Notes: generated from the sequence alone by a model not told the origin. Numbered from the stretch's first letter, positions 33,399 through 54,231 are shown. The stretch: 64,000 nt of DNA from a virus (IMGVR_UViG_3300042562_002450:96001-160000), one strand, 5' to 3'. Made by a program: numbers and translations.

Positions 33399-33622
33399 AA
33401 TAATCCTAATGACTTATTTGCCGTAATTGATGTTACTGGTCCATCTATTTTTGTTTCAGTCTCATATTGACTTATATCTAAGTCTTTCTTACCTAAAAGA
33501 TGAATGGTTCCATGCTGTGTAATATATCCTATCTCTCCAACTAAATCACCTAAAAAAGGAGATAGGAGATAGTGCCAATCTGGAGTAAAGAGCATCTCCG
33601 CTACATTATTCTTAGTTGCCAT
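33395..33622 (-). CDS. Small hypothetical baseplate-region protein
   Basis: 75 aa; coupled on both sides (TAATG and TTGA overlaps). Confidence 0.5.
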   Translation of the reverse strand: MATKNNVAEMLFTPDWHYLLSPFLGDLVGEIGYITQHGTIHLLGKKDLDISQYETETKIDGPVTSITANKSLGLF

Positions 33623-36600
33623 TATTTTTTTCCTTGCGCTGCTTTAAATTTTTCTTCTAATTTTTCCCATCTTTTAGGGTCATTATCCTTAAGTCCACCA
33701 CTATACGGAATCGCATAATAATTATCAACCAGAAATCTACCAAGATCAACACCATTAACTTCTACTGATCTGAATTTTACTTCTGCAACTTTTCTTCCGT
33801 AATTATCACTCTCATATCTTACTATGCTAATTTTAGTTCCTGGAGTGAGTAGCATTGAGACAGCTTCAGTTGCACGTTTCCCCATTCTATATTCTGCAGT
33901 ATTCTTATCTGCTTTTGATTCTCCAGTATCTATTCCTGAGATACGTATCGTTTCATTTCTACCAGTTATTATTGCTGGACTTGTAATTCTTCCACCTTCT
34001 GTCTCAATTGTATCTCCATCTAAAACTCTCGTAACAACTTCTTCTTCTGTATTTCCACCAACAACTGGCTCTCTAAGCCATGGATCTAAAAAGGTAGAAA
34101 CTAAGAATGCTGTAGCCCCAAGCTTATCTGCTCCTCTTGCTGCTTGCAACTCTAAATGCTCAAGTGGAGTATTTTCTTTAAATCCATTAAGAGCAGCCAT
34201 CCAAGGCTTACCATCTTTAGTTAATGGGAAGATAGAAATGGGTTGTCTATATGCCATGAAATTGATGAATCCTTCAACAGCACTATCTATTGCAGCCTCA
34301 ACAAGGAAGCCACCTGCAATTCCTCCCAGAGTACCAAGACCAAGTTTTCCTAAAACAAGACCGCCAGTTAATCCAGCCTTAAAAGTAGTCTTAGCTGCAG
34401 TCACTCCCGTTCTTATGCTATTAGTATTTTTTATAGCATTAAAAGCACTTTTCCCAGCATTGCTTGCTAGCTTTGCTTGTTGAATCGCAAGTTCAAAATT
34501 CTTAGTATTAATTGGTATAGATCCAAGATACTCTCCACCTATGTCATAGATACCTTTGATACCTTTGACTACTCCTTTGTCTATCCCTCTAGATAAAACA
34601 TATGGAGCAATAACTTTATTGCCAACTACAGAACCACCAAGATGTGATCCAAGTGTAGCACTATCTATAATAGCTTTATTGCTTAAAAGAAAGCTTTCCC
34701 CTTCTGTTTCAACTTTTTCTTTTGGTACGTCACCTAACATTAATGGATCAGGCTCTAAGTCCTGGAATCCTTGATTTTCTAGTTGTTCAATTGACCTGTC
34801 TAGATCCTCATCAATGTCAGCTCTTCTTGTTGCATCAGAAGGTAAAAACTTTTCCATATTTGAATAGAAAAGATCAGCCTCTGCCCCTAACCAGTATCTT
34901 GCTGCCTTTAAAATTGATTTTATCTGATAAGCACCAGTACTAGTATCTGGAATAGCTATAAACTTAGGAGTTATACTTGTGATCCATCCTGATGTTGGCG
35001 AAATAGTATGCATGACTCTTTGGACTCCAATTGGTCCACTTATCTTATTATGCTTGTCATCAAGGATAACAATATCATGAGGCTTAATTCCTTTTCTTCC
35101 TAGTATCGTTAACTTACCTTTATATATATTTTCAAGTTCTTTACACAGAACTGCTTTTGCATATTTCTCTGGAAGATGCAATCCAGGATGATCTTCATGT
35201 GCATTGTGAAATGTAAATGTTTTATTATTTATAAGATTACTATGCAGATCATCATCTGCTTTCATCCTATCTGTTATTTTGTAACTACTAAACCATCTGC
35301 TTCCAGTAAATTCTGTTTGTCCACTTGTACCTGGATGGTGAACCTGAACAGAGTTAGCTACCCCAATAGATGAGGCTTCTATTCTATTGGAAACAATGTC
35401 GTGATGAGAGGTAACAATATGATAAGCTCTGAAGTTCTTTTGCATTCCAAGTATTGCTATTGACTGAGCATCTGTCTTTGTTATTGTAGAGTTTTGCAAT
35501 GCTCTTTTTTCAAGTCTCTCCTTTGAGTCCACTCTTGAAGTTGGTGTTGTAGAATCACCTAATGTTTTAATATTTTCTGCATCTGAAAACTCTGCTTTTG
35601 CATCATATATTTCTCTAAGAGTTGCTCTTTCTCCTAATCCTAATTCGTTTGAAGCTTTGATCTTTAAAGCTTTCTCTAAAGCTGTTGCAGCTCCACGACA
35701 AAAATAAACACCATCTGGCTCTCCGAAATAGATAGTACTTCTATTGTCAAAAGGAACAACAGCTGTAACATATCCTGGATGTCTTAATGTCATCTCTTGT
35801 AAAACATCCCATACTGTCTGTTGAAAAATTGTGAACTGAGCAGGATTAGTCTCTTGCTTAGCAGCATCCCATACTTCACCTAGTGTACCTATGCCAAAAG
35901 CTGCTACTGCTGCTACTAATCCAAGTGGACCAAATAATCCAGCAACACCAACTAGCGGTATTAAGATACCACCAAAAAGAGAAACAGCGGAACCAGTTCT
36001 TAAGAGTGCTCCCTCGATAAATGTTCCCCATCCTTTAACTGGTCTATGCATTACTGGTGCATAGATATTATCTAATGCATTCCTTCCACCTAACAATAGT
36101 GGTAGATCTAGACCAAAGTTTCCTTTGATCTTATAATTTGTATTTCCAAAACTTTTAATCTCATCAGCTTGTGCGATAACTTTAGCTAATAAGTCATTAG
36201 TACCTGAATTCCATGAATATGTCTTTTTTTCATCTCCAACTCCAATAGTATTCTGAATAAGCTCATGACCATCTCCCATGCAATATATTTCAATAATATC
36301 ACCATTAGATATAGCTGCTATCCTTCCATTGAATTCTAATTCGAGAGCCCCTATGTCGTTTGAGTTGCCTAAAAAGGCTCTAATTTTTATTCCTTCTTTT
36401 AATCCAATATCTTCTAAATTAGTATTGTAAGTATCATGCATGGTGGTCTGCCCACTCATTGCATCACTAATAAGTCTGCCTGCTACATCCAATATATCTT
36501 CTCCATCCTTCCTGTGAAACGATGGATCCTTAGATTGCTTTGTCATTAAGGATTTATGAGTACCCAAGACTCTTATAATCATGACATCTGCTGCTTCGTA

Positions 36601-39600
36601 TTCATCTTTTATTATTCGAATATCAACGATTGAAGAGAGATCATATATATCAAGCAGGTCTCTTTGATTCTTAGCCATTGCCTCTAAACTTTTAAGATCC
36701 TCAGAAGAATAAGCTTGTGAATGAGACAGTTTTTCACTAAAGAGTTGAACTTGAAAAGCTGGATAAACCTGATCAAGTGAGTGAACAGGGGGTGTAGTCT
36801 CTGCAATTGCTTGCCTTACAGCTTGAAAGCGATAGTCCTCACTCATTAGATTATGTACTCTTGCAGATGAATCTAGATTTTCAGAATCAGTTCCAGCGTA
36901 ATTTGCAGCTGGAGCATAATCAGTTTCTCCAGCTTTAAGATCTTTAGAAAGAGTAGATCCCCGATAAGGATTTAAAGTTTCTTGTGTCTTTGCAAGGAAT
37001 GTTGGTTCAATCAATTTTTGTTTTATAGCTTTAGTGGTACTTCCATAAACACCTGCCATACTATTTATTATTGTATTTCTGTAACCATTAACTCTATAAG
37101 AGTTATTGTCTAGATAGTATGCAGGAGAGACTATCTTATCTGGGAGTAGCATATCTGGATATAGATCTTTTAGGTTTTTAGGTCTAACATCTGTATAGTT
37201 AGTGAAGAGATCTACGTAGTCAGCTACCCACTCTTCTCCTTTTTCAAGTCCTTTTATGAAATCTGAGTAGAGTGACAGGACAAAGTTATTAACCCAAGTA
37301 ACATTAAAGTGTTCACTAAATTGATCAGTAATGAAATTTTCAATCTCTTTTTTTATTGCTCTTTTTTCTTCAGTTTCTTTTATCGACAATGGGCCATAAA
37401 GAGCTCTTGTTACTTTTTTTAATTCTTTAGATTCTTTTTGAGTTAATGGGTTCTCTGTGTGTACTCTTTTAATTTTTTCGCTAAAGAAAAACTTTGACTT
37501 ATAAGCAGCATCAATTGGCTGACTATTAACCTCCGCCATCTCGTCATCACTCATTCCTCGTCGACCCATTGGCGATAACTCTGTAGATGAGAATGTTGCA
37601 TCCCCATTAAGCAGGTCGTATAAGTCTTTGTCTCCTGCCAATAATTGATTTAATGCATTTGCAAGTTTTTTTCCTGCTATTGATTCTGCACTCCACTTAT
37701 GTCTATCTAAAATGGTATCATTAACAAAACCCTGACGACCAAAAGTACAACCAGAATTAATATAAATTTTTTCTATGATTTTCTTTTGAATTTTAAAAGC
37801 ATCAGAAGATCCAGTGTCTCCTTCGTACTTAATAGGGAAACTAGCTTTGGCAAGTCGTGTCTCTTTGAAATCAATCTGAATGCTTGATGCGAAAGGTAGA
37901 TTAGGAATAGTTGAAGACTTAGTGCTTGAAACAATAACAGGAAGATATTGATCAATCTTAAATTCCTTCGGTTCACCATTCTTTTCAATATATTTATAAC
38001 TTTTCTTATCTACATTGTGTGATCTATATTTTAAAAGCTTAGCTAGTGGATGTGAGATTAGAAGATGATTCTCTTTTGAGAATTTAGAATAGGTAATCCT
38101 ATCTGCAGAAACTTTTTTAAAAATTGAAGAAAGAGTCGCAAGAGAATTCGAAGTTCCTACTGCTGTCTTATTCTGTTCTCCAGCATACTCTGCTGCTGCA
38201 AAAACTATTGCTCTAAGCTCTGATGTGTTCCCACCTAAGAACTGAACTGTTGGCATGGAATATAAGTCCATCTCGATATAGGTTGGATTGGTATTAAATG
38301 AGAAGCTAACATTCTGAAGAATTAAAGCTCCAGATGTTCCTCTTGGATTGAAATCAGCAAATGGTATTTCAAATCTTCTCCATCTATAAAAAATACCAGA
38401 AATAGGTTTCCCTAGTCTGCCTTCTTCTTCTTCTTCTGCAAGATACCATCCTTCTTCTTTTTTCTTATTAATAAAAAGAGCTGCATCAAAGCTTATACCT
38501 TTAGCATCCGTATTTAGTTGTGATCCTTTTGTATTTCTTTGAACAACAATAGTTGTTTCTTTTTCAAAAGAACCATACTCTTTATACATGAGTACCATTT
38601 TATCTTTTTCATCAAGAAGCCCAGGGTCATTAATTAAATTTCCGCCTACAGTTGTTGTTTCATTTTCGTAAAATTTCTTAAAAAGGCTAGATGGTGCTCT
38701 TTGTTTTCTTGGCTTACCATCAATCATCTCTATGAATTTAACTTCCTCAACATAAGGTGCATGGTTAAACCATGTTAGCTGAAGAGTACATCTAATAATT
38801 CCTGGGTGATCTTCTTCTGAGTATCCATTAATATTTTCAACAATTACAGCAATATTTGAGTTATCACTAGGATTATTAAAAAGTTCTTTTCTTATTTTTT
38901 CATTATCAATAATAGCAATTGGACTTTTCTTTGACTGGATTATCATTCGACTTAGTTTGTCATAACCATGAAAGCTTGTATCAATAGGAAAGTTTACGAT
39001 CATTCTTATTCGTTTTTTTCCAGACTGTGCCATTACTGGAGTTTCTTCTCTCATTAACATTATTGAATTGGCATATTCATCCATGTCTATAGAAATTGAT
39101 TCTGGCGGAATATCGAAAACAATATCATTGAATCTAAAATATCCCGAAGCAATTCGATTATTAATATCTATTGACTCACCATCATCTATGTCTCTAACTG
39201 GAGAGGCTTGAGCTAATGCTATGGCATCAGCTTCAGCTTGATTTGGATCTAAAACTAAGCCTTCCATTTGATTTGTTAACGCAGGTAGCCCTGTAGCTTT
39301 AGCTAGATTGTTAATTCTTTTCTTCCAACCATTAGAGAATACCTTATTTTCGGGTCTTCTTTTGACTATCTCTTGATAATCATTCATCTCTTTTTCTAAG
39401 AACTCAATCTGTACTTTTTTTGATTCATCTGAGGAGAGTTGATTTATTTTCTCAACCATCTCAGGAGTTACAGTTCCATTCTTTGGTAATCCGAGAATCT
39501 GCTTAAGATGACCTACTGGCCTGCTTCCTTTATTAAAAGTCTGGTCAAAAAGGGGAAGACTAACTTTAAGATTGTTAATCTCATCACCTCTTATCTTGTC

Positions 39601-39801
39601 CCATCTTTCCTTGTAAATAGCTCTTACTTGACTATTGGATATTGACCTTAACTCTGCTTTTGTTGCTGGACGGTTTAAGTACTCGGAATAGCTACCAATC
39701 GTAATACCTTTGTTAGTGGCACCGCCACTATCATTAGGGTTGTCACTCCAACCTCCCTCTTCCTTCAAAACATGTTTCATTGCTTTATCAAAATTAGTCA
39801 T
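33622..39801 (-). CDS. Baseplate hub fusion: GH108 muramidase + tube/hub domains + SNase nuclease
   Basis: N-terminus HVLKEEGGWSDNPNDSGGATNKGIT (GH108) plus PG-binding GWKKRI; gp27/gpD-like YKGKLTILGRKGIKPHDIV; C-terminus VLDGDTI/RISGIDTGE/DNYGRKVA (thermonuclease). Confidence 0.85.
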   Translation of the reverse strand: MTNFDKAMKHVLKEEGGWSDNPNDSGGATNKGITIGSYSEYLNRPATKAELRSISNSQVRAIYKERWDKIRGDEINNLKVSLPLFDQTFNKGSRPVGHLKQILGLPKNGTVTPEMVEKINQLSSDESKKVQIEFLEKEMNDYQEIVKRRPENKVFSNGWKKRINNLAKATGLPALTNQMEGLVLDPNQAEADAIALAQASPVRDIDDGESIDINNRIASGYFRFNDIVFDIPPESISIDMDEYANSIMLMREETPVMAQSGKKRIRMIVNFPIDTSFHGYDKLSRMIIQSKKSPIAIIDNEKIRKELFNNPSDNSNIAVIVENINGYSEEDHPGIIRCTLQLTWFNHAPYVEEVKFIEMIDGKPRKQRAPSSLFKKFYENETTTVGGNLINDPGLLDEKDKMVLMYKEYGSFEKETTIVVQRNTKGSQLNTDAKGISFDAALFINKKKEEGWYLAEEEEEGRLGKPISGIFYRWRRFEIPFADFNPRGTSGALILQNVSFSFNTNPTYIEMDLYSMPTVQFLGGNTSELRAIVFAAAEYAGEQNKTAVGTSNSLATLSSIFKKVSADRITYSKFSKENHLLISHPLAKLLKYRSHNVDKKSYKYIEKNGEPKEFKIDQYLPVIVSSTKSSTIPNLPFASSIQIDFKETRLAKASFPIKYEGDTGSSDAFKIQKKIIEKIYINSGCTFGRQGFVNDTILDRHKWSAESIAGKKLANALNQLLAGDKDLYDLLNGDATFSSTELSPMGRRGMSDDEMAEVNSQPIDAAYKSKFFFSEKIKRVHTENPLTQKESKELKKVTRALYGPLSIKETEEKRAIKKEIENFITDQFSEHFNVTWVNNFVLSLYSDFIKGLEKGEEWVADYVDLFTNYTDVRPKNLKDLYPDMLLPDKIVSPAYYLDNNSYRVNGYRNTIINSMAGVYGSTTKAIKQKLIEPTFLAKTQETLNPYRGSTLSKDLKAGETDYAPAANYAGTDSENLDSSARVHNLMSEDYRFQAVRQAIAETTPPVHSLDQVYPAFQVQLFSEKLSHSQAYSSEDLKSLEAMAKNQRDLLDIYDLSSIVDIRIIKDEYEAADVMIIRVLGTHKSLMTKQSKDPSFHRKDGEDILDVAGRLISDAMSGQTTMHDTYNTNLEDIGLKEGIKIRAFLGNSNDIGALELEFNGRIAAISNGDIIEIYCMGDGHELIQNTIGVGDEKKTYSWNSGTNDLLAKVIAQADEIKSFGNTNYKIKGNFGLDLPLLLGGRNALDNIYAPVMHRPVKGWGTFIEGALLRTGSAVSLFGGILIPLVGVAGLFGPLGLVAAVAAFGIGTLGEVWDAAKQETNPAQFTIFQQTVWDVLQEMTLRHPGYVTAVVPFDNRSTIYFGEPDGVYFCRGAATALEKALKIKASNELGLGERATLREIYDAKAEFSDAENIKTLGDSTTPTSRVDSKERLEKRALQNSTITKTDAQSIAILGMQKNFRAYHIVTSHHDIVSNRIEASSIGVANSVQVHHPGTSGQTEFTGSRWFSSYKITDRMKADDDLHSNLINNKTFTFHNAHEDHPGLHLPEKYAKAVLCKELENIYKGKLTILGRKGIKPHDIVILDDKHNKISGPIGVQRVMHTISPTSGWITSITPKFIAIPDTSTGAYQIKSILKAARYWLGAEADLFYSNMEKFLPSDATRRADIDEDLDRSIEQLENQGFQDLEPDPLMLGDVPKEKVETEGESFLLSNKAIIDSATLGSHLGGSVVGNKVIAPYVLSRGIDKGVVKGIKGIYDIGGEYLGSIPINTKNFELAIQQAKLASNAGKSAFNAIKNTNSIRTGVTAAKTTFKAGLTGGLVLGKLGLGTLGGIAGGFLVEAAIDSAVEGFINFMAYRQPISIFPLTKDGKPWMAALNGFKENTPLEHLELQAARGADKLGATAFLVSTFLDPWLREPVVGGNTEEEVVTRVLDGDTIETEGGRITSPAIITGRNETIRISGIDTGESKADKNTAEYRMGKRATEAVSMLLTPGTKISIVRYESDNYGRKVAEVKFRSVEVNGVDLGRFLVDNYYAIPYSGGLKDNDPKRWEKLEEKFKAAQGKK

Positions 39802-39833
39802 TACTTACCTGTTGCTTTTACTGGAAATATCTT

Positions 39834-39862
39834 ATTATAAAGTTGAGAAGATAGAACAGCAA
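39834..39862 (-). promoter_or_regulatory. Sigma70-like promoter for hub/baseplate operon
   Basis: TTGCTG, 17 nt, TATAAT, then AGGTA ribosome binding site and ATG 39801. Confidence 0.45.
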
Positions 39863-40104: not shown

Positions 40105-40587
40105 ATGTATTATCTTACTTTTATATTTAAAGATCCAGATACACTTATAATTAAGTGTGTTGGTGTTAAATATAAGAAAACAGAGTTTGAAGACTCCGAT
40201 ATTGCTAAGTTGCTGAAACTAGGCACTTCTAATATTGAGACTAAGTTTTGGCTTAAGGAACTAAGAAAAGAAAATAAGATACCAGTTCTTGAGATACTAT
40301 ATAAAGGTCTAAGTTCAGCTGAAGCTTGCTTTGCAAAACAACAAATACTAATACAATCTGTAGAAGAAAAGATTGACCTAATTGGTCAACAACCTTTAAC
40401 TAAGAAGTATACAAAAAAGATGAGAAGCAATAATAGTATGCGCTCTGCTATTGTTGATCAGTTTGGAAATAACTACTCAGGCATACTAGAAGCAGCAGAA
40501 AGATTACTACTAGCTCCATCTAATATTTCAAAAGTTTTACATGGTAAGCTTGAACATATTGGTGGATATATCTTTAGCTTTCTTTAA
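40105..40587 (+). CDS. Degenerate GIY-YIG-like protein with C-terminal NUMOD1-type helix-turn-helix
   Basis: YYLTFIFKDPDTLIIKCVG and WLKELRKENKIPVLEIL match GIY-YIG scaffold; YSGILEAAERLLLAPSNISKVLHGKLEHIGGYIFSF is NUMOD1-like; AAGGAG ribosome binding site. Confidence 0.65.
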   Translation: MYYLTFIFKDPDTLIIKCVGVKYKKTEFEDSDIAKLLKLGTSNIETKFWLKELRKENKIPVLEILYKGLSSAEACFAKQQILIQSVEEKIDLIGQQPLTKKYTKKMRSNNSMRSAIVDQFGNNYSGILEAAERLLLAPSNISKVLHGKLEHIGGYIFSFL

Positions 40588-43500
40588 TATCCTCTGCCTA
40601 TCTTGTCTTGCATATCGTGATAATCAAAGTTTCTAGTGTCATCTTTTATTCTCATACTAGATGTATTGTGCTCAGCAGCGTACTTATTTATTTGGAAACC
40701 AGTTCTTGCATTCCCTGATATTGATGGCTTCATGTGTCTTGGACTTTTTATATTTGGAGCACCAGGAGGACTAAAACCGACTCCATTACTTTTGTTATGT
40801 CCAGATTGCATATCTCCAAACTCAACATCAGCTTCAATGCTTGATCTTGCCCCAAATACTGTTCCAAGCAATCCTAAGATTGCTGCTGGAGCAAGTGCGT
40901 ACTTAGCTAAGTTTCCACCAAAGCCTTTACTCATTGCCTTCACATCATCAGTATTATCCATTATTGTTTTAACAAATTCTGATTGTTTTACCTTACTGCC
41001 TTCTAGTATTCTATTTAATTCCCTTGCTTGATCAGCTGCATTCATTCCACCTTTATATTCTCCAGCAAGGTTGCTTACTTCCATTAGGTCTGTTACTGCC
41101 TCATCTGAAGTAAGGTAAAGGAAATCTTTCTTACTGACACCACCTTCTCTGGAAAAGATAGCTTCAATTTCTTCTGAAGTCTCTCCTGCTCTGATCTTGT
41201 CTCCAAGATTTACGGTTGATTTCTCATTAAGACTTAAAAAGAGTTCATCTGAAAAATCTCTAAAAGTTTTTATTTTCTCAGTTATATGCTTAGATCCAAA
41301 CTCTCCATCTCCAGTTATGGAATCTAGAACTTTTTTTGCTCTTCCACTTATCAGATCTTCAGTTGATTGTGCTTTTCCTTTGATAATGTTTTCAGCAAAA
41401 AGATGCAAGGTATTCTCTACTCTAGCGAACTTTTTAATATCACCATTATTAAGCATGGCATTCATCTGGTGTAACGGACTGGCACTATTAGAAGCTATTC
41501 CAATAAAGCCTTTTTCTAAATCTTTAGCAAGAAAGGTTGAGAGTCTCATTTCCGCTAAGTCATTAGTAAGAACAGATGCTGCCTCTCGACCTTTTAGGGT
41601 ATACCTTGTTTTGATTTCTTGAGCTTTCCTTAATTCAATTGAGTCTTCTGTATTTCCATATGCTCTTTCTTTAACTTCATTTGCTGCAGCTTCTGTCTTT
41701 GCAGCGATAAGAGACATCGTATCTCCATCATAATCTCCATAAACCATTCTAAGGATATTGTTTTTTTTGCCTGAAGCAATAGCCATCCTTTCATCAGAAA
41801 GGGCTTCTAAGCCTTCTATCGAATCAGAAGGTACAACATTCACGGTAATTGCTGAAAGCCCCTCTACTGGCTCTCTAACAGCTACAGCCCATGTATCTGA
41901 GAATCTATTAGCACCTGTCTTCTTGTGAAAGGCATCGTAAGCATCTTCTCCATACATCTCTATGAATTTATTCTTATTAACAGCAACAACAAATGGTTGA
42001 GCGTTTTTAGTCTTAAACTTAGCAGCTAAACTATCAGCATATTCTTCAAGAGCATTTGAACCTGATGAAACTTGAGCATTCATACTGCTAGTTACTTTTC
42101 CCTTAAATATTTTGCTTCTTAAATCATCACGCATCTGAGAGATTGCACTGTCATAGTTAGTAACCAATGTAGTTAATCTTTCTTTATTTCTTTCTAGTTT
42201 TGGTTTTCCCATTTCACTTATTATATCTTTGGTTATCGTATCTAGTTCTGTATATTTTTTATACTTACCGCCATGTCCAATCTTTTCTCCAATATGACCT
42301 TTCATTGAAGGATCTGTGAAAATCCCTATCTTTCGATATCCTAAGATTTCATCTTCAAGGTCAACATAAGCAACACCATCAATAGCCTCATTACTAAGGT
42401 ATGCTGCCCTTTGCTTAAGAACACTATTAGATCCTAGCTTTTCTCCTTCAACATCTAAAGGAAAGACATTAGAATTAAAGTCTCCTCCTTGTAGTTTTTC
42501 TGGATTAATAATGCCAGCTTTAGTTGGATTAGTTATGTCTTTCATCATTCGATGTGATGCTTCAAAACTATTAAGTCTTGCATTGGCTCCTGGGTCTAAT
42601 CTTCTTGACATGACATCTTCAGCAAAGGCATCAAGTCCCATAACGCTATAGAGTCCTATGTGTCTTTCAGAGAAGAATCCTAGACCACCAGCTCCTGTAT
42701 CTATTGCAGCATTACCGAATGCAACATCTTTATTTTTAAAAAAACCTACATTGGATCTTAGTCCACTAATTTCTTCAAATTCATCTTTACCACCAATGAT
42801 AGTTTCTATTCTTTTAAAATAGTTCATTTTTTCAGTATCATCTATTCTTTCAAAATTAGAAAGAAGGTCTTCCCCAGCTTCATATATTGCTGCCCATTTA
42901 TTATTTTCAGCATCAGACATCTTAGATGCCCCATAGGTTATTCTCTGTCTAGCCTCATGTCTAATGGAATGAAACATACTAGATAAATTACGTGGATCTA
43001 ATCCGCTTTTCATTGCACTTGAGTTTGCTATTACTTCTACGTTTTTTATTCTTCTAATGACTTCAGGATCTAATGGCTTATTACCATTTAATTCTTGATA
43101 GTATCTCAATATATACTTCTCTAATCCATCGATACTTCTTTTAACTGTAGCTTTAACCTCACCTGCAATGTCATGAATCTTATCTCCTTGATCAAGCAAT
43201 CTTTGCTTCCTAAAGCCATAAGTTAATCCTTCATTCTCAGAGATGTGAATATCATCAAGATACAATCCTCTATGTTCTTTTTCTAGTTGAACTTTTCTTT
43301 GTCCATCTCTTGAGATTCCTAGTAAGTTTCTATTTCTAAACTGTTCTTCTCTGGTTATTATTTCTTTTTCTATTTTCTCAATTTCAGAAGATAATGATCC
43401 TTGCCCCTTAAGTCTTTCAGCATCAGCAAAATATATCTGCTCACCTACTGGACCTGAAATTACTCCAGCTGAATTTGAGTTAACTTTAAGATATGCTTGT

Positions 43501-44993
43501 CTTTTGTTTTTTGAATCCTCTATAGCTTTTTTTAAATATTCATGATAGTCATCAACATTAATTTTTGTTAGTTTTGCTCTAACCTCAGGGCTAAATGCTT
43601 GGAAGCCCCCACCTTGTTTTAGCTTTGCTGCAAAATCTTTTTCAGACAAGCCAGCGGCATCACTCATCCTCCCCATTAAAAAGCGGGAAAGATCTGTCTC
43701 TTTTCCTGCATGGATCTGGAGTGATCGAGTATTATCTACAAGAGTTCCAGCAAGCTGCCTATTTGTTAAAAGTTCTTCTTTTCCTAAGTGACCGAATGAC
43801 TTACCTTCCTCAGCTAAGTATTCATTTATTCTTGTTATCCCTTTTTCATCCATAAAAAGAACTTCTTGATTATGATTAAAAGAGTGGTTACCTTTTGAGT
43901 CTATATGGGATGTATTAGTTCTTAATCCTTGCTTGGAATTACTGGCTTCTTTTGCGAAAGGCTTTTGCTCTATAACATTGCCTTTTAGGTAAATGATACC
44001 TTTATTTACATCTGAAGCATTTCCTGCATTCCTTCCATCTAAGGCTTCATTTTTAAGTATTTGTTTTTTATCAAATTCACTCATTGGTTGAAATGGATTA
44101 GCCTTGGCACTATGTCTATGTAAAGCAATAGCTTCTGGATTCATTTTTGATGTATTCATAAACCCAGTAGCTTTGTCATTATATTGCATTAATTCCATAA
44201 ACCTATTGTTATACTCGTCTAAGTTCATTTCTCCACTTATGAATTTACTATAGTTTTCTCTTATTCCTCTGACATATGCGACATCAGCTCCTACTATTTC
44301 TCCAATACCAGTTCCTGTTGAGTTACTATTAAATACTCCTCTAATCACAGACTGATTCTGACCAGCAGAACCCATTGTTACCATGCCTTCTTTGTTAACA
44401 GTATGAACTTTTATTTTCCCAGCTTTAGAAGGAATACCAATAGAGGTTATCTGACCAGTGCTATCAAAGTTAACTGATATCGCACTTGATCTTCCTCTCT
44501 TTCTTCCTGACGCTAACCCTTCTACTGAGTTGTCTGCTTGATCTATTGTAACTTGAAGAGCTTTTAGCTCATCCATTAGTGTTGCACTTTGGTTTCTATA
44601 TCCACCATCTAAGAAATCAGCTATTCCACCGCCAGCTTTTGAGCCACCTGACATTATGATCTCATCATTAATATTATTTATTGCTGCAAAGTTTCTTCTT
44701 TTAGATACAGCTTTTTCAGTATCTGTATATGTATATAAATCTGTATTCTTTAATAAAGAATCTATAGGCTTTTGATCCTCGACAGCTTGAGCTACATCTT
44801 TGTTCATTAGACTACTTAAGTTCTTAATGAATTTATTATTTTCTTTTCTTAGCTTGCCCCTACCTGTCTTGAAGTGACCATGCTTGATAGACTTGTCTAA
44901 AGCTACAGCAGCACCACCAAATAAGGCGGCTCTTCCTGCAATTGAAAAAAAATCATAATTAACATCAAATCTATCTTCTGTCGTTGTGATCAT
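40584..44993 (-). CDS. Putative single-chain two-barrel RNA polymerase (virion RNAP candidate), 1469 aa
   Basis: Ordered motifs: RLLDQGDKIHDIAGEVKAT, VEVIANSSAMKSG, FFSERH (beta-like); GKVTSSMNAQV, AVREP, YGDYDGDTMSL (beta'-like). True start ATG 44993 overlaps TGA of the tape measure. Confidence 0.8.
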   Translation of the reverse strand: MITTTEDRFDVNYDFFSIAGRAALFGGAAVALDKSIKHGHFKTGRGKLRKENNKFIKNLSSLMNKDVAQAVEDQKPIDSLLKNTDLYTYTDTEKAVSKRRNFAAINNINDEIIMSGGSKAGGGIADFLDGGYRNQSATLMDELKALQVTIDQADNSVEGLASGRKRGRSSAISVNFDSTGQITSIGIPSKAGKIKVHTVNKEGMVTMGSAGQNQSVIRGVFNSNSTGTGIGEIVGADVAYVRGIRENYSKFISGEMNLDEYNNRFMELMQYNDKATGFMNTSKMNPEAIALHRHSAKANPFQPMSEFDKKQILKNEALDGRNAGNASDVNKGIIYLKGNVIEQKPFAKEASNSKQGLRTNTSHIDSKGNHSFNHNQEVLFMDEKGITRINEYLAEEGKSFGHLGKEELLTNRQLAGTLVDNTRSLQIHAGKETDLSRFLMGRMSDAAGLSEKDFAAKLKQGGGFQAFSPEVRAKLTKINVDDYHEYLKKAIEDSKNKRQAYLKVNSNSAGVISGPVGEQIYFADAERLKGQGSLSSEIEKIEKEIITREEQFRNRNLLGISRDGQRKVQLEKEHRGLYLDDIHISENEGLTYGFRKQRLLDQGDKIHDIAGEVKATVKRSIDGLEKYILRYYQELNGNKPLDPEVIRRIKNVEVIANSSAMKSGLDPRNLSSMFHSIRHEARQRITYGASKMSDAENNKWAAIYEAGEDLLSNFERIDDTEKMNYFKRIETIIGGKDEFEEISGLRSNVGFFKNKDVAFGNAAIDTGAGGLGFFSERHIGLYSVMGLDAFAEDVMSRRLDPGANARLNSFEASHRMMKDITNPTKAGIINPEKLQGGDFNSNVFPLDVEGEKLGSNSVLKQRAAYLSNEAIDGVAYVDLEDEILGYRKIGIFTDPSMKGHIGEKIGHGGKYKKYTELDTITKDIISEMGKPKLERNKERLTTLVTNYDSAISQMRDDLRSKIFKGKVTSSMNAQVSSGSNALEEYADSLAAKFKTKNAQPFVVAVNKNKFIEMYGEDAYDAFHKKTGANRFSDTWAVAVREPVEGLSAITVNVVPSDSIEGLEALSDERMAIASGKKNNILRMVYGDYDGDTMSLIAAKTEAAANEVKERAYGNTEDSIELRKAQEIKTRYTLKGREAASVLTNDLAEMRLSTFLAKDLEKGFIGIASNSASPLHQMNAMLNNGDIKKFARVENTLHLFAENIIKGKAQSTEDLISGRAKKVLDSITGDGEFGSKHITEKIKTFRDFSDELFLSLNEKSTVNLGDKIRAGETSEEIEAIFSREGGVSKKDFLYLTSDEAVTDLMEVSNLAGEYKGGMNAADQARELNRILEGSKVKQSEFVKTIMDNTDDVKAMSKGFGGNLAKYALAPAAILGLLGTVFGARSSIEADVEFGDMQSGHNKSNGVGFSPPGAPNIKSPRHMKPSISGNARTGFQINKYAAEHNTSSMRIKDDTRNFDYHDMQDKIGRGY

Positions 44994-47900
44994 ACAACAT
45001 AACCCCATTCTCTTAAGGCATCATTTCGTTCACTTCTTCTATCTAAAGTTATATCTAGATCAGGACTATTATCTAACCCTGGACGCATTACCACAAGGGC
45101 ATTTTCAACACCACTAGCACTAAGGCTAGAATAGTGCGAAGCGTAGTCTGAGCTGGAAGAAGCAGGAATATTAACAGTAGCTGCTGCAACTTGAGATAGA
45201 TCTCCTTCTCTTGCTGATCTTCTTCCTGTATATGCATGAGTATCTCTTGCCGCATTTTCTAAGTATCTATTCTGAGCACTATCTACACTTACAGCAGGAC
45301 TCCATCCAACCCAGTCATTTCCAGGCATTCTTGATTGATAGTCTTGCAACTCAGCTGAACGTCTTGCTTGAATTGCTCTCTGTCTTGCTTCTACATCTTT
45401 CATTACTTTCTTTCTTTGCTGATTAGACATTGACTGGCTTTTCATTGCTTCTTGTCTTATTTGATTATCCATTTGTGCTTGGTAAGCATCACGATGTCTT
45501 GGATTAACTCTCCCAATCATTTTTACTTGTGTGGCTCTATCAGTCTTAATAAAATACTTATATGAAGCTCTTTCATTTTTTGGTAATGATCTCACAACAT
45601 CAGACGGATGTGAATATAAATCCTTACCTGTATATGTCTTCTGTGCCATTATTGTATATCTATCTGCAGACTTAAGATCGCCTTTTGATTGTGCATCTCT
45701 TGCTAAGTTTGTGAATTTCATATAATCAGTTTTATCAAAGTAATCTGCAATTTCTGCTTGATCACTGCTCATGTCAATTCCACCAAGCCCCATGCTATTA
45801 AGGGTCATACTAACAGTTGGCATTATAAAATCGTCAATAGGATTCGCCCAGTTTCTGTAATCCTTGGAGTATCTTTGCTCTTCCAAGACATCTTCAATAT
45901 CTGGTGGTGCTAAGAATTTATGTGCAGGAGAAACTGGTAATAATGTTTCTAGTGGATTTGATCTTGCAAGGTCAGTTAAGACTGCAGAGTATCTACCTAA
46001 AAAACTATCATAGGTACTTGGGTCTCTAGCATTAAGTTCAGACTTTTTCTTTTCATCAACTTGTCTTTGTACATCATCAAAGATATCTTGTTCATACTGA
46101 GTTAGTTCTCTGTTCTGTAATTTACCTTTAATGTTTCGATGTTCCATAGAGCCATAAGCGACATCAGATAAAATCTTATATTTAAAGATATCAGGATAAT
46201 CATTTGGATCCATCCCTTTTAGTTCTTCATATTTTTGAGCGAAGCCCTCACCAGGCAATCTTGAATAGCCATCTTTAACTTTAAGAAATGGATCACCATG
46301 TTGAAAATCTTGATAAAAATCAGAACCAGGCATCCAGCTAGGCATCATATTCTTTAATGGATTAAGATTAATCGTAGCATCCATCTGAGCTTTCTGGAAA
46401 CCATCTTGATTCTGGAATACCCTTCGTAATGCTTCTGTTGTTAAGATACCACCACCTAACTGGAGATCATAAAAGTCTCTAGTTATTGAATCAATATCTT
46501 TTGCTGATCTTACTTCATTTGGATCTGAAAATATCTCACTAGAACCTGTTATGGTTTCCTTTATTGCTTTAACTGCAAAGCCTCTTAGTCCCATAAATTC
46601 AAGAGCAGAGTTCCATTGCTTTCTAGCAAGCGCATCAATATCATATTCTGTGTTATCTAAAAATCCTTCTGGAAGTTCAGACTCGTGCATAGTAGCAACT
46701 GGCTTTATAATCCTTCCAAGAGATGCCTCATAGGCAGGACCAAAGATACCAAGCATACTTCCATCTGGACCAGTTAATGGATATGGTTGATCAAAGTATC
46801 TATTCTTTTCCAACCAAAATGGATCATATATGGATCTTCCTAGCTTTGTGAATGGTGAAATATTCCCACCATAAAGCTCTTCATTTTTAGAATCATCTAT
46901 TAATTTGGCGTACCAATTAGGTCTGTAGTAATCAACCTCAGATCCTTCCCATGGCGTAAAGGATGATTCCCAGAATCTACCTTTCTTAACTGCTACTTCT
47001 TTTTCTCCACTATATTCTAAACCTAATTCAGAAGCAGATTTATCTGCTCCAAATCCGGCTAAAGTAAAAGGTAGGGCAAGTGCAAAGCCAATAGCTCCAC
47101 CAGTCCTTATAGCTTTACCTGTTTTGGTTACATTCTTTTTAAATATTTTACCTAAGATCCCATCGAATGATTCTGTCTTCTCTGCATTCTTTAGGAATTG
47201 GCCATACTTGTCTGTTGCAGAAGACTCTAATGCTAGTCCTTGTACGGAACCCCAAAGCCCTCCAGCCATACCTCCAGCAAGAGTTAATCCTATAGTTGAC
47301 TGCCAGCCTTCTGATCCTGGTGCTTTGGATTCTATATAATCTCTGAAACCAGTTAGTCCAGTTATGTCTGAAAGTCTTGCATATGTCTCATGTGCTTTCC
47401 GTACACTATAAGCAGCTCCACCAAGTAGTCCAGCATCTCCAATTGGAGTTCCATCGGGAGCTATCTTTTCTGCACCCCAATTTAAAGTTCCTAGTCCAAA
47501 GTAAGCTAAAGCTCCAACTCCTGCAAGCTTCCCTCCATGAGACTTAAGCATACCTTGCCAGTTAGTCGCAAGCTCATTTCCATCTAGTCCAGTATTAAAA
47601 AATTTAGCGATAAATCCATCAGGACCCAATGTCTTTTTCATCCATGGAGTAAAATAATCATCTAACTCTGGTATAACGTCCGTCAATGCTTCAAAGGGAT
47701 CACTCATTAACTTCATTGGCTTACTTACAGTTTCATGAATAAAAGCACTAGCAAAATGATCAACACCATTAGTAATAAGGAAATCAAACTTAGACATCTG
47801 CTGAACATTCTTCAATCCAAGTTGGGAGAGATGCGACCTTGCAATTGAAGCCATGCTCTTTGATTGATTATTATCTGTTACAGTTTTCATTAAAGAGAAT

Positions 47901-50473
47901 GATCCTTTCATCTCTTCGACTACATTCCCTCTGTGAAGCATTAGCTTCCCATTTTCAAAAACAACTTTATGTATCCCCTCTTCTCTAAACTTTCTATTGA
48001 AAGCTTTGTCCATATATTTGGCATATGATTCGCCTTGTTGTGTTTTAAAATCAACTTCAAAACGGGCAGTATCATACATACCATAGCTGGCAATGTCTCC
48101 TAGCCCAAAAGCTTTTGGAAAGCCACCAAGAGAAGCCTCTGCTCGTCTTATTGTAGAAACAAGTAAGTCCTGAGCAGTTGAGTGAGTTCTGTTTAAAAGT
48201 TTTTCATTATCCACTAATGGACTAAGCGCACCTAGGTATTTAACATCATTAAGTCTTCTCTTAGAAGCTTGATGCTTAAATACTGAGTAAGCTCCTATAG
48301 TCCCTAATCCTGTCAACCCTATCTGAGTCCATGACATTGGATCTTCATTAGGATCTTCTGGCTTATGAAAGTCCTGTGTTCTAAAACCAGAACCAAATGA
48401 TGTATTGTATTTCCTTTGATTTTGAGTCGGGGATCCATGCTGGAGTCCCTCTATTGTATTTGCCTCATCATCACTACCGGAAAATTTAAATAGATTAGTC
48501 ATTGCACTTCCGAGCATGACTGCACCGAAAAGCATTGTTCCCATTTTTGCTGTTTTCAATGCTTTAGTCTGAGCATCTGTTATGTCTGGAATCGCTTTAT
48601 TGCTACGAAGAAAAGTCATTCCCTCATCTGAGTTTTTATATTTTAAAAGCTCTTCATCGTATAGTTTTTGTGAATTAGCAATATCATCTGTAAAAATTAG
48701 ATTTTCTTTATTATATTTAGGATTTATTTTCCCTAAGCTTTCTCCTGCTTCAATGTTACCCTTTATCATCTTAGCCATTGACTCTCGATACAAAACAGGT
48801 TCTTCAGCCTGTCTCATCTTCAGCCAACTATCTGTTGCCTTGCTTAACTCTCCCCCTCCTTCAACTTCCTTCATTGCATTAACAAGCATTTTGGAAAGTC
48901 TTCCCTGCTGAAAGTTATCTAAGTTACCATCATGCCATTCTTTCTCACCTAAGAATGATCTAGCTAAGAAATTAATATTAGTTCCAACGCCAAAACGACT
49001 AGTCTTAGCAATAAGATTTTTCTGCTGAGCCATTGCATTCAATGTTTTAGATAATTCCTGTATCTCAATAATACTACCCTTAGAATCAAGAGCCTCATTT
49101 AATATTTGAGTTGCTCTTATCTTTTGGTTAGAAACCAATCTATTAAAACCTTCTTCTTCTGTTATCTCTCCTCTTTTAACTTTACCTAATATGCTTTTTC
49201 TTTGCATACTTTGTTCTGACCTTAACTGCATATATTCTTGTGAGTAACGAACAGGACTTCGACCGTCAAACAGTTCTTCAAAATGATCTATCTCAAAGTT
49301 TGCATTCATTGCAAGAATATTCTTTTTATTTTTCTTTGCATCTTCTAAGAAACCATGAACATATCCTTGTACTGATCTTCTTTTTGCAACTTCGGCAATA
49401 ACGTTTCCTGCGAAACCTTCTTGAGTATTTGAAAGTTGTTTTGAATAATCATTTACTTTTTGGATTTTAGTAAAATCAAAATTCTTTTCCTTATGTAGCT
49501 TTCCTATTGCAGTTTGATCATAAAGGAATGGATGATTTTCTAATTTGAAATTATTAGGTTGCTGCATAAAGATAGAGTGATAATCATTCCCTCTTTTTAG
49601 CGAGACTTGAAACATTGAATGCTTACTTGACTTTAATGACTTTGTTTCGATATCAACACCATATTGATCATCAAAAGCATTATCAATATCCCCACTGGTA
49701 AGTTTTAGGATATCTGAAAAATCACCTAGTCGAAAAGGAGATCCAAATGCAGTTGCCATCTTTCTCATCTTTCCAAACCAACCATGACCCATACCTTCTA
49801 TTATTGGCCTAGCTTCTCTTCTCATGTTCCTAATGAAAGGATTATTGCTTTTGATTCCAGCATGCACAATAGATTGAGATTTAATCTCTTGAAGTCTAGA
49901 ATAGTCACCTGCGAAATCTGCATGATTTAAGGCAGAAAATTTTTGATCTGAGTTGTTAAAAATAGGTAGTGCTTTTTTCTCAATAAAAGACTGAACTCTC
50001 TTTACTTTACTTAGATCATTCTGGTATTTATCAAAATCATACTTTTGATGAATAGTCTTTTGCATGTAAGGATTATCTTGATTAATATAATGAAGATATC
50101 CTTTCTTTATCTTTGAGTTGTGCATTAAAGCATTGAGCTCTGATTGGTCTACGGACTTAGCTTTATTCATTATTATATTTTCAAAATCAGCAGCAGATAC
50201 AGCTTTAACCTTTCCTATGCCGTCTTTTGAAACTTCATCAATAAAACCAAATTCTCCACCATTCGTATTCTTTATCTTTACATCATTTTTTATAATATCC
50301 TTTTCAGATATCCTTTTCTTTTTTACTATTTCTTTCAATGTATCATTTGATCTTTTTTGCAGACGTTGAATAGTATCAGGGGTATTTTTTTGAATAAAAG
50401 ACTTTAATAGATCCTCATGGGTCTTTCCAAAGTCAGAAGCCTTAACTGGGAGATGTTTTCTTTTATTATCCAT
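44990..50473 (-). CDS. Tape-measure-like protein with embedded DEDDh-like exonuclease domain
   Basis: 1827 aa directly after chaperone pair; several Gly/Ala-rich hydrophobic segments; VDIET, AMNANFE and WHDGNLD motifs. Confidence 0.7.
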   Translation of the reverse strand: MDNKRKHLPVKASDFGKTHEDLLKSFIQKNTPDTIQRLQKRSNDTLKEIVKKKRISEKDIIKNDVKIKNTNGGEFGFIDEVSKDGIGKVKAVSAADFENIIMNKAKSVDQSELNALMHNSKIKKGYLHYINQDNPYMQKTIHQKYDFDKYQNDLSKVKRVQSFIEKKALPIFNNSDQKFSALNHADFAGDYSRLQEIKSQSIVHAGIKSNNPFIRNMRREARPIIEGMGHGWFGKMRKMATAFGSPFRLGDFSDILKLTSGDIDNAFDDQYGVDIETKSLKSSKHSMFQVSLKRGNDYHSIFMQQPNNFKLENHPFLYDQTAIGKLHKEKNFDFTKIQKVNDYSKQLSNTQEGFAGNVIAEVAKRRSVQGYVHGFLEDAKKNKKNILAMNANFEIDHFEELFDGRSPVRYSQEYMQLRSEQSMQRKSILGKVKRGEITEEEGFNRLVSNQKIRATQILNEALDSKGSIIEIQELSKTLNAMAQQKNLIAKTSRFGVGTNINFLARSFLGEKEWHDGNLDNFQQGRLSKMLVNAMKEVEGGGELSKATDSWLKMRQAEEPVLYRESMAKMIKGNIEAGESLGKINPKYNKENLIFTDDIANSQKLYDEELLKYKNSDEGMTFLRSNKAIPDITDAQTKALKTAKMGTMLFGAVMLGSAMTNLFKFSGSDDEANTIEGLQHGSPTQNQRKYNTSFGSGFRTQDFHKPEDPNEDPMSWTQIGLTGLGTIGAYSVFKHQASKRRLNDVKYLGALSPLVDNEKLLNRTHSTAQDLLVSTIRRAEASLGGFPKAFGLGDIASYGMYDTARFEVDFKTQQGESYAKYMDKAFNRKFREEGIHKVVFENGKLMLHRGNVVEEMKGSFSLMKTVTDNNQSKSMASIARSHLSQLGLKNVQQMSKFDFLITNGVDHFASAFIHETVSKPMKLMSDPFEALTDVIPELDDYFTPWMKKTLGPDGFIAKFFNTGLDGNELATNWQGMLKSHGGKLAGVGALAYFGLGTLNWGAEKIAPDGTPIGDAGLLGGAAYSVRKAHETYARLSDITGLTGFRDYIESKAPGSEGWQSTIGLTLAGGMAGGLWGSVQGLALESSATDKYGQFLKNAEKTESFDGILGKIFKKNVTKTGKAIRTGGAIGFALALPFTLAGFGADKSASELGLEYSGEKEVAVKKGRFWESSFTPWEGSEVDYYRPNWYAKLIDDSKNEELYGGNISPFTKLGRSIYDPFWLEKNRYFDQPYPLTGPDGSMLGIFGPAYEASLGRIIKPVATMHESELPEGFLDNTEYDIDALARKQWNSALEFMGLRGFAVKAIKETITGSSEIFSDPNEVRSAKDIDSITRDFYDLQLGGGILTTEALRRVFQNQDGFQKAQMDATINLNPLKNMMPSWMPGSDFYQDFQHGDPFLKVKDGYSRLPGEGFAQKYEELKGMDPNDYPDIFKYKILSDVAYGSMEHRNIKGKLQNRELTQYEQDIFDDVQRQVDEKKKSELNARDPSTYDSFLGRYSAVLTDLARSNPLETLLPVSPAHKFLAPPDIEDVLEEQRYSKDYRNWANPIDDFIMPTVSMTLNSMGLGGIDMSSDQAEIADYFDKTDYMKFTNLARDAQSKGDLKSADRYTIMAQKTYTGKDLYSHPSDVVRSLPKNERASYKYFIKTDRATQVKMIGRVNPRHRDAYQAQMDNQIRQEAMKSQSMSNQQRKKVMKDVEARQRAIQARRSAELQDYQSRMPGNDWVGWSPAVSVDSAQNRYLENAARDTHAYTGRRSAREGDLSQVAAATVNIPASSSSDYASHYSSLSASGVENALVVMRPGLDNSPDLDITLDRRSERNDALREWGYVV

Positions 50474-50537: not shown

Positions 50538-51122
50538 TCATATAAGTGTTTGATTTTCTTTACTAAAGTCAATGTACTCTTGGCCATCTGCTCCTTTCTT
50601 CATTGCTGGAGCTCTAGCTTTATCAACCTTATTAGCTTTGGGATTTGAAACAAAATCAAAGGTAGTTCCAAGTATCTTTTCTGCTTGAACTAGTCTTCTC
50701 ATCTGTGTCTTCCATTCCATATCCTCAACTTCCTCTGGGGTGTATGCAGGGAATGCCTGACAGATTTTAACTATAATTTCATCTCTGAGATTCATTGAGC
50801 TATCTCGTACTGAACTCAATTCTTCTTGGATTTCTTTTTCTGATGTTGGATTAGAGAATCCTAGGATTAAACGAACTATAGTAGATACAACACCAGCATT
50901 AAGAGTATTAATTGTTCCTCTTAATGTATGCTCTACTACACATTCTTCCCATATGTTATCTTCAACAATAGGGGCTAGAGCTGGATATGCTTGGCATATT
51001 CTTTTGGCAGTTTCACATTTAGAATAACTTAATGGCTTAAATAAAACTGAACCTTTACCTGTATTAAACAGATAAAGGTTCTTATACTTTCCATATAATT
51101 CAAATGCATTGCCATTATTCAT
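50538..51122 (-). CDS. Tail assembly chaperone 2
   Basis: 194 aa; N-half paralogous to upstream chaperone (LYLF..VLFKPL..TLNAGVV..LIL..SN); just before tape measure. Confidence 0.7.
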   Translation of the reverse strand: MNNGNAFELYGKYKNLYLFNTGKGSVLFKPLSYSKCETAKRICQAYPALAPIVEDNIWEECVVEHTLRGTINTLNAGVVSTIVRLILGFSNPTSEKEIQEELSSVRDSSMNLRDEIIVKICQAFPAYTPEEVEDMEWKTQMRRLVQAEKILGTTFDFVSNPKANKVDKARAPAMKKGADGQEYIDFSKENQTLI

Positions 51123-51125
51123 TTT

Positions 51126-51689
51126 CTATAGTTTTCTAACTAGAGTTACGGCTCTTTCTGGCTCCATGAAATTAGATGCTTGAAGGATTAAATTTCTGAT
51201 TGCTTCTGGAGCTCCAGCAGTTAATACATTAATATTAGCTTGATTTAGCAATGGCCAAACGACACCAGCCATCACAATACCTTCTGTTCTTTGCTGCTCA
51301 GATAGTTTTGATTTTTCAAATCTTTGCATAAGCTCACGCCATTCTTGACGTTTCAGAGGTCTGAAAAGAAAGTTTTCTTTTTCACTTAAAGAGCAAAGGT
51401 ATATTTCTCCATGCTTACCTTTAAGTGTTTCTATTTCAGTTTCAGAAGGACGACGTTCAAGACTTTTAAATGTTTGAATTACAAAGTCTGAATTACTTTT
51501 TTTCTTTAGAAGTTCTTCTAGTTGTTTTTCTTCTTCTATGGAAAGAAGGTATGACACATCATCAATATCTACTGGGATATCCTTATCTAGGGATTCAAGA
51601 TCCATAGCAAAAACATCATCTAAATTAGGCTCTTGTTCTTCTGTATTGTAAAAACTATCATCAACTTCAGTTTTAACTTGGTCAGTCAT
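51126..51689 (-). CDS. Tail assembly chaperone 1
   Basis: 187 aa; LKGKHGEIY..FLFRPLKRQEWREL..LTAGAPEAIRNLILQASNF; between tube genes and tape measure. Confidence 0.75.
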   Translation of the reverse strand: MTDQVKTEVDDSFYNTEEQEPNLDDVFAMDLESLDKDIPVDIDDVSYLLSIEEEKQLEELLKKKSNSDFVIQTFKSLERRPSETEIETLKGKHGEIYLCSLSEKENFLFRPLKRQEWRELMQRFEKSKLSEQQRTEGIVMAGVVWPLLNQANINVLTAGAPEAIRNLILQASNFMEPERAVTLVRKL

Positions 51690-51721: not shown

Positions 51722-52408
51722 CTATATAAGGTTTTTAGCAAAAAAGCTATAGCTTTCTTTTAGGGCTTCTCCATTAGCGGATATGAGTCTACCTCTACCA
51801 ACAAGTTTAACATCAATGATCTGTTCTCCTATTGTGTCTTCATTGATTACAGATCCGTAACCTATCTTAATGTTAAATGTAGGTATCGCAAATGGATCAT
51901 ATGCTCCACTCTGATCACTCGTTACTGTAGAGTTTGGAAGAAGAGAATCCAATCTTCCTTTTATAGTCTGCCCTTTTCCATCTGAGTCATTTTTCTTTTT
52001 ATTGAAAAAATCCTCCAACATTTGTCTCTTTGTAATTGCATCATTGTAACTAGAATCAAAATCGTATGGACCGATTGGGGTTTTTATTGGTTGACCATCT
52101 TTATCTAAGCCTTCTTTGAATCTTTTTGCTTCAAGGAAAGGATATGATCCTTCATTTTTTTTTCTATAATGTTCGAGTATAGCAAAAAGATAATTTGGTT
52201 CTCTGAAATTAATTGTAAAACTTCCCTGTACCATTATTCGACCTTGCGCTGCATGACTCCAGAAGGTATCTCCGTAACCATATATAGGCATTGAGTTAGA
52301 ACCAACAGAGCATTGCCAATCAACAATATCATCTACCCATAATTCTCCAATAAAAATTGAAGCTTGTGATCCTGAAAAATATTCAGTATTTAATTCTGTA
52401 CGTGCCAT
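51722..52408 (-). CDS. Tail tube paralog (tube initiator/hub-proximal)
   Basis: 228 aa; YFSGSQASIFIG..PIYGYG..GRIMVQGSFTINF aligns by eye with the tube. Confidence 0.7.
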   Translation of the reverse strand: MARTELNTEYFSGSQASIFIGELWVDDIVDWQCSVGSNSMPIYGYGDTFWSHAAQGRIMVQGSFTINFREPNYLFAILEHYRKKNEGSYPFLEAKRFKEGLDKDGQPIKTPIGPYDFDSSYNDAITKRQMLEDFFNKKKNDSDGKGQTIKGRLDSLLPNSTVTSDQSGAYDPFAIPTFNIKIGYGSVINEDTIGEQIIDVKLVGRGRLISANGEALKESYSFFAKNLI

Positions 52409-53556: not shown

Positions 53557-53570
53557 TAGATTCCTGATAT

Positions 53571-53601
53571 AAAAATAAAGGGGAGAGTAAAAACTCTCCC
53601 C
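53571..53601 (-). terminator. Rho-independent terminator after sheath-tube
   Basis: 9 bp perfect stem GGGGAGAGT/ACTCTCCCC, 4 nt loop, then TTTATTTTT on the minus strand. Confidence 0.85.
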
Positions 53602-53637
53602 CTATTGTAAACTAACTTTTTTCGAGCATCAATGAAA

Positions 53638-54219: not shown

Positions 54220-54231
54220 TGTGTTTTCTCC

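Follow-up and report, generated by a model that had tools for sequence, protein, structure and literature searches.

RNA polymerases (RNAPs) of the two-barrel type that are carried in virions are known so far from the heads of phiKZ-like phages, from crAss-like podoviruses and from one group of Thermus siphoviruses. In the Thermus siphovirus P23-45, the single-chain, two-barrel enzyme gp96 with its DxDxD motif is encoded in the tail, or tape-measure, locus and constitutes the N-terminus of a 5,002-aa tape (PMC10770324); a second single-chain RNAP, the non-virion gp64, is located in the early region, and the host RNAP serves the late genes. The virion-packaged gp66 of the crAss-like podovirus phi14:2 (PDB 6VR4) is also a single-chain two-barrel enzyme, a head protein of ~2,200 aa encoded outside the tail operon. 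Single-chain polymerases of the QDE-1/RdRP/YonO type, among them gp99 of phage 0305phi8-36, form a further group, whose YonO-type members are non-virion enzymes encoded outside structural operons. The virion RNAP of the Schitoviridae N4 and DEV is ejected, free of cysteine and flanked by hydrophobic segments (PMC11445570), but it has a T7-type fold unrelated to the two-barrel enzymes. In a survey of 224 jumbo phages, which mentions phage ME3, 0305phi8-36 and c-st were the only phages with an RNAP that did not belong to the phiKZ group (PMC7824862), and our literature search for a virion RNAP in a tail or tape-measure locus retrieved only the P23-45 paper.

The gene described here lies in a window of 64,000 nucleotides, the whole stretch of DNA that was analyzed, which is part of a lake phage record of 198,626 bp (~89% complete). 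With a record of 198.6 kb and a relative of 209 kb, the label 'jumbo' given to this phage in an earlier note is borderline but fair. The gene occupies positions 40584..44993 on the minus strand and encodes a cysteine-free protein of 1469 aa, a predicted single-chain two-barrel RNAP in the slot of the 'tape measure' gp146 of 0305phi8-36. Translation of the open frame (40584-45008, minus strand) bore out the earlier claim that all listed motifs lie in order on one minus-strand ORF, with the two-lysine segment G608-T621 at 43187-43146, REP at 41876-41868 and DYDGD at 41735-41721 (residue numbers are counted from the first ATG at 45008). This ATG was rejected in favor of the start at 44993 that the note had chosen, where an ATGA overlap links the gene to the stop of the upstream gene and where six of seven close homologs align the first residue; the five extra codons of the longer frame contain its two cysteines, and there are no others. 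The 4-bp overlap is identical in all eight relative loci examined. Contigs of four independent freshwater studies reproduce the RNAP stretch without indels, two of them spanning the junction with the upstream gene, and both the stop codon and the junction are confirmed by independent contigs.

Metagenomic searches yielded 37 full-length homologs of 1350-1599 aa with a median pairwise identity of 21%. Only 18 columns are invariant among them, including K610, K619, R782, P1047, D1092, D1094, D1096, E1206, K1210 and K1212, and because the catalytic residues are found among so few invariant columns the motifs cannot be attributed to chance. The proline of the RxP motif is present in 37 of 37 homologs and the arginine in 36; in cellular enzymes, this arginine senses the ribose 2'-OH. 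The three aspartates of DxDxD are likewise invariant (37/37), and the fourth position of the motif varies (G, K, A, Q, R). A split of the beta and beta-prime parts over several genes, as in phiKZ-type enzymes, was not found: a single ORF carries both halves, so that both barrels reside in one polypeptide, with 444-530 aa between K610 and D1092 across the family and ~390 residues C-terminal to DxDxD. Two of the parallels to cellular subunits drawn in the earlier note hold only in part. The histidine of its ERH motif is kept in just 14 of 37 homologs, although the arginine preceding it is an invariant residue, and the SAMK parallel is weaker than claimed, with the lysine kept in 26 of 37. Searches of Pfam, NCBIfam and PDB sequences gave no match for the RNAP, nor was there a Pfam RdRP hit, and PHROGs returned only a weak match of unknown function (E 0.019). 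When 50,697 phage records were queried by tblastn, neither this RNAP nor the second RNAP described below had a match. Viral and metagenome contigs scanned for sequence patterns yielded no loci, and a weak search gave no fused forms of 2,572-5,000 aa.

Structure prediction followed by Foldseek, as the earlier note had proposed, gave a confident AlphaFold2 model of residues 200-1300 (pLDDT 87, pTM 0.85; 'model' residue ranges refer to this model) and, against PDB, RNAP chains in all top 50 rows, chiefly beta-prime. In the VIA-align comparison QDE-1 ranks first (Z 11.8, 401 aligned residues, rmsd 4.5, both barrels covered), and an unbiased search added matches to P74 gp62 (Z 8.8, 345 aligned, rmsd 4.5), P23-45 gp96 (Z 7.1, 340 aligned, rmsd 4.7) and phi14:2 gp66 (Z 6.7, 448 aligned, rmsd 5.0); judged by their ranges only, the superpositions on these four proteins each extend over both barrels, which together with the pTM lends indirect support to a predicted placement of the Asp triad opposite the two lysines at the barrel interface. 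The top twelve ranks are all polymerases, with moderate Z-scores. Of the cellular beta/beta' matches, beta-type subunits align on model residues 1-603 (Z 7.1-7.8, rmsd 5.1-5.5, 310-363 aligned), and isolated double-psi barrel domains on model residues 775-905 (Z ~8, rmsd ~2); the order of beta-half and beta-prime-half in the model agrees with the order of the motifs.

On the basis of model strands, the alignment of beta-type subunits and invariance, the beta-like barrel region comprises residues ~594-779 (42672..43229, minus strand), with K610 at 43179-43181 and K619 at 43152-43154; the invariant R782 follows the region. Beta-prime N-termini align from model residue 621. A connector of ~195 residues, which is folded in the model, leads to the beta-prime-like double-psi barrel, residues 975-1102 (41703..42086, minus strand), which contains REP and DYDGD and is delimited by the isolated-domain alignments and the invariance of the three aspartates and the proline. 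Conservation and the model suggest that the long helices after this barrel (41373..41556, minus strand), which end with the invariant E1206, K1210 and K1212, might represent the bridge helix and the trigger helix. The compact enzyme accounts for ~1,060 of 1,469 residues in the model. The hydrophobic segments said in the earlier note to flank the protein do exist, with moderate hydropathy (Kyte-Doolittle 1.3 and 1.6): one is Gly/Ala-rich, N-terminal and conserved in the family (44898..44954, minus strand), and the other, at 40854-40910, forms with the conserved last ~60 residues a C-terminal region (40587..40910, minus strand) that matches 0305phi8-36 gp146. Conservation among 37 homologs and the fold matches together support the reading as a single-chain two-barrel RNAP, which is predicted to be active.

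The protein resembles P23-45 gp96 in its single chain, its two barrels, its DxDxD motif and its location in a tail locus. In contrast to the siphovirus P23-45, the phage belongs to the contractile-tailed 0305phi8-36/ME3-like lineage; its RNAP is not the N-terminus of a long tape but a protein of 1,469 aa that is nearly all enzyme, the connector between the barrels is, as judged by aligned ranges, folded in the model rather than short and disordered as in the flat, clamp-less gp96 (residues 613-679), and the two proteins show no sequence similarity. Thus, the enzyme would work like gp96 but stands outside the gp96 family. None of the names and accessions checked against the supplements of PMC10770324 was present there. 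The similarity to phi14:2 gp66 extends to the single-chain two-barrel organization and probably to packaging, but the gene for gp66 is located outside the tail operon. The best structural score links the protein to the QDE-1/RdRP/YonO-type polymerases. A glycine before DxDGD is typical of that group and is present here, whereas YonO-type enzymes differ in their non-virion nature and genomic location. With the unrelated virion RNAP of N4 and DEV the protein has the lack of cysteine and the hydrophobic flanks in common, and with 0305phi8-36 gp146 and the other proteins in its slot the gene order and the lack of cysteine, the C-terminus being common to gp146, WH1 and Edson.

The contractile tail claimed earlier is supported by a sheath match (E 7e-74) and a baseplate wedge. 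The gene order is sheath, tube, tube paralog, small genes, a protein of 1,600-1,830 aa, polymerase, hub and baseplate; it is seen in full on the longer relative contigs, and shorter contigs show the part that they cover. On the minus strand of the window, tail tube paralog, tail tube and tail sheath are found at 52408..56325 (tube identity by synteny with gp140/gp141), followed by two small genes at 50538..51689 in the tail chaperonin gp143/gp144 position, to which they are assigned by position, and by the cysteine-free 1827-aa partner protein at 44990..50473, a homolog of 0305phi8-36 gp145 and ME3 gp35 whose stop overlaps the RNAP start. The RNAP is coupled to this large upstream gene in 8 of 8 relative loci, and the gene in hub position comes next where contigs reach it; in the window it encodes a baseplate hub-like protein with an N-terminal GH108 lysozyme and a C-terminal SNase domain (33622..39801, minus strand; gp147 position). 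The terminal domains of the hub-like protein, of which the staphylococcal nuclease is the last, vary among relatives and are missing in two of them. A sigma70-like promoter, TTGCTG-17-TATAAT, lies upstream of the hub gene (39834..39862, minus strand) and is conserved in six genomes; the gap in which it is found (39802-40104) contains a number of conserved blocks, among them divergent sigma70-like promoters and two more invariant words. In close relatives the tail operon is interrupted by an opposite-strand NUMOD-like HTH gene, which in the window (40105..40587, plus strand, 160 aa) is convergent with the RNAP gene and overlaps its stop; the gene is missing in distant relatives. The partner protein is a candidate tape measure or ejection-channel protein; it contains two hydrophobic segments and a short internal repeat (IEG..HG...FGS.F, twice), and an Atlas search with it gave no match.

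Sheath and upstream protein group the phage with ME3, 0305phi8-36, MTATph1, WH1, Edson and KLEB27-3, and the RNAP occupies the position of 0305phi8-36 gp146. The latter is annotated as a 'hypothetical tape measure protein' and as a virion protein by mass spectrometry. Hardies et al. called it a tape measure mainly by its length, and only its last 60 residues could be aligned with the positional counterpart (PMC2147016). The C-terminus of the RNAP family matches gp146 with a domain E-value of 4e-6, and Edson and WH1 with 0.005 and 0.012, respectively. The slot proteins of four cultured phages, none of which is annotated as a polymerase, contain RxP and DxDxD ~40 residues apart: ME3 gp36 has REP and DHDQD (HMM match E 2e-10, Foldseek E 3e-9), and WH1 gp095, Edson 0920 and KLEB27-3 gp034 have RYP and DHDGD or DYDGD. 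The Bacillus slot proteins are ~1,000 residues longer than the RNAP family and only weakly similar to it by sequence (hhalign 36%), so that the link rests on synteny, motifs and a BFVD match (A0A7R7G2L5_2, E 8e-8) assigned to WH1 gp095 by protein length only. Judged from these features, ME3, WH1, Edson and KLEB27-3 may carry an unrecognized RNAP counterpart in the slot. Our literature search found no paper on WH1 or KLEB27-3. In KLEB27-3 an inserted ORF, suggestive of an intron or mobile element, seems to divide the gp145-like gene into gp031 and gp033.

Gp146 and MTATph1 CDS27 do not contain DxDxD but have other pieces in common with slot proteins, and the gp146 slot therefore looks like an exchangeable cargo position; the polymerase is hence dispensable in the lineage. 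A 184-residue region is common to gp146 and MTATph1 CDS27 (E 4e-10), and 100 residues are common to CDS27 and KLEB27-3 gp034; these regions are candidate cargo domains of the slot.

A virion location of the RNAP is suggested by its position in the tail operon, the suppression of cysteine, the gp146 C-terminus and the scarcity of host promoters in the early arm. Among the proteins that N4-like phages eject, avoidance of cysteine is conserved (PMC11445570; PMC3915230). The tail RNAP family contains one cysteine in 53,524 residues, compared with 245 in 22,334 residues (1.1%) of the second, early-arm RNAP family. The proteins in the gp145 and gp146 slots of six cultured phages contain none, and their hubs contain 5-12; at the structural-arm background of 0.46%, the chance of zero cysteines in one protein is 0.001, although a few other structural proteins are also without cysteine. 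The relatives that infect Gram-positive hosts are cysteine-free too, and the signal should therefore be read as 'ejected or extended' and not strictly as 'periplasm'. Gp146 is the only slot protein with mass-spectrometry evidence, and it is a protein without DxDxD.

A genome-wide motif scan detected a second candidate single-chain two-barrel RNAP of 1,478 aa with the motif DVDGD among small early-type genes (genome 193,760-198,196, plus strand), which is probably a non-virion enzyme. It has 14 homologs, its model shows a beta-type barrel (Z 8-9.5) and its best viral match is another ME3 protein; it also carries a four-cysteine, zinc-ribbon-like insert. Both RNAPs are present on the 209-kb relative. 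Their profiles align with an hhalign probability of 9%, over REP-DxDxD only, and the label 'paralogs' was dropped for two proteins that can barely be aligned. The profile of the second RNAP had no match in five cultured genomes in a search run without positive control. The early arm contains 26 sigma70-like sites compared with 54 +/- 7 in shuffled sequences, and a TTG-TATAAT site is found upstream of 0 of 139 early-arm genes and 3 of 53 structural-arm genes. This pattern is weakly indicative of early transcription by a phage enzyme and late transcription by the host RNAP, the scheme described for P23-45; counts of strong sigma70 sites over five cultured relatives did not tell phages that have a slot RNAP from those that do not. 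The words that emerged from a search for an early promoter specific to the phage were all at chance level, and a 14-mer common to two intergenic sites was discarded as promoter candidate, as it is not conserved in relatives.

Several other features of the early region were observed. The early operon contains repeated stable intergenic hairpins (genome 176,030-187,450; z -4 to -5.7) of two sequence families, most of them without U-tail and just upstream of ribosome-binding sites; they are possibly processing or stabilizing sites, or hairpin promoters. Three intergenic repeats at 177,540-178,200 of the genome show hammerhead-like core words, with no Rfam match at gathering threshold. Where the coding strand changes between structural and early arms, there is an A-tract-rich gap of 762 bp with G/C runs (genome 175,264-176,025), a candidate for the physical genome end or a packaging site.

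We consider it likely that the tail gene encodes a catalytically intact DNA-dependent RNAP which is made late, packaged and ejected and which transcribes the first phage genes, including that of the second RNAP; we infer its activity, packaging and promoters. The RNAP would be produced late together with the tail proteins and enter the virion with its cysteine-free gp145-like partner. The folded core of ~1,060 residues is too wide for the lumen of the tube, and the protein would thus have to pass the tail tube unfolded and refold in the cell. Its hydrophobic ends and the partner might then anchor it near the entry site, from where it would transcribe the first genes, among them the one for the non-virion one-chain polymerase.

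Active but unpackaged, the enzyme might alternatively transcribe middle or late genes and owe its place in the tail operon to history. The virion evidence for RNAP-bearing members is inferential, which leaves some room for this explanation, but we regard it as quite improbable given the family-wide suppression of cysteine that is absent from the second RNAP, the translational coupling within the late operon, the conserved host-type promoters on late genes and an early arm that already has an RNAP of its own. An injected two-barrel enzyme might also have another job, such as primase-like or RNA-templated synthesis, or act as a transcription motor that pulls DNA in. QDE-1, the best structural match, uses both RNA and DNA templates, an Atlas lead points weakly (score 0.83) to an RdRP-family cluster, and both roles can coexist; however, the characterized single-chain two-barrel enzymes of phages that PMC10770324 names are without exception DNA-dependent RNAPs, and an early arm without host promoters calls for a phage enzyme, which makes another job unlikely. 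Finally, two cultured relatives manage without the motif, as might be expected if the protein were a relic that has lost its activity and is retained for a structural role in the tail, or if its motifs were fortuitous; but as the majority of the 18 columns that stay invariant at a median identity of 21% are catalytic residues, we give this very little credence.

Within the preferred reading, a packaged and ejected RNAP, it has to be asked which protein is the tail ruler. The earlier note described a separate gene coupled to the tape measure; the coupling is real, but the upstream gene cannot simply be taken as the ruler, since the RNAP itself holds the gp146 slot. Because this slot is annotated as tape measure in 0305phi8-36, either of the two neighbors may be the ruler: the interval between tail chaperones and baseplate hub holds two large genes, of which the RNAP is the second. 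It is conceivable, though rather doubtful, that the polymerase chain is also the ruler, which would lie stretched out in the tube and, once ejected, refold into an enzyme. In support, its gene sits where the tape measure gp146 is annotated, and the protein has in common with gp146 the C-terminus, the only alignable part of gp146 according to Hardies et al.; it is cysteine-free, family length is held tightly (1350-1599 aa), and P23-45 provides a precedent. Yet the compact enzyme takes up ~1,060 of 1,469 residues and leaves little tape-like sequence, and it is the gp145-like gene that comes immediately after the chaperone genes, where a tape measure is usually encoded. The 486-nm tail of 0305phi8-36, the sole tail length found, corresponds to 0.19 nm/residue for gp146 and 0.25 for gp145, compared with ~0.16 for P23-45 gp96, and neither protein fits cleanly. 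We therefore suggest only tentatively that the annotated tape measure of 0305phi8-36/ME3-like myoviruses is an exchangeable slot for ejected cargo and that the cargo polymerase (1,470 residues) sets tail length in this clade and then folds in the host.

A packaged RNAP in this position would extend host-independent early transcription to a wide contractile-tailed lineage, in which it is invisible to sequence annotation, and it puts the length-based tape-measure label of the 0305phi8-36/ME3 lineage in question. With ME3, WH1, Edson and KLEB27-3 in culture, it can be tested directly whether a large enzyme is packaged, leaves through a contractile tail and refolds, and the slot enzymes may serve as compact, rifampicin-insensitive transcription tools. 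In BFVD, strong fold matches were also found to a 'minor tail protein' of Siphoviridae sp. ctnpt50 (A0A8S5SD80) and to a protein of Microcystis phage MaMV-DC (A0A075BUT7), which, judging from their predicted folds, are likely further unannotated single-chain RNAPs.
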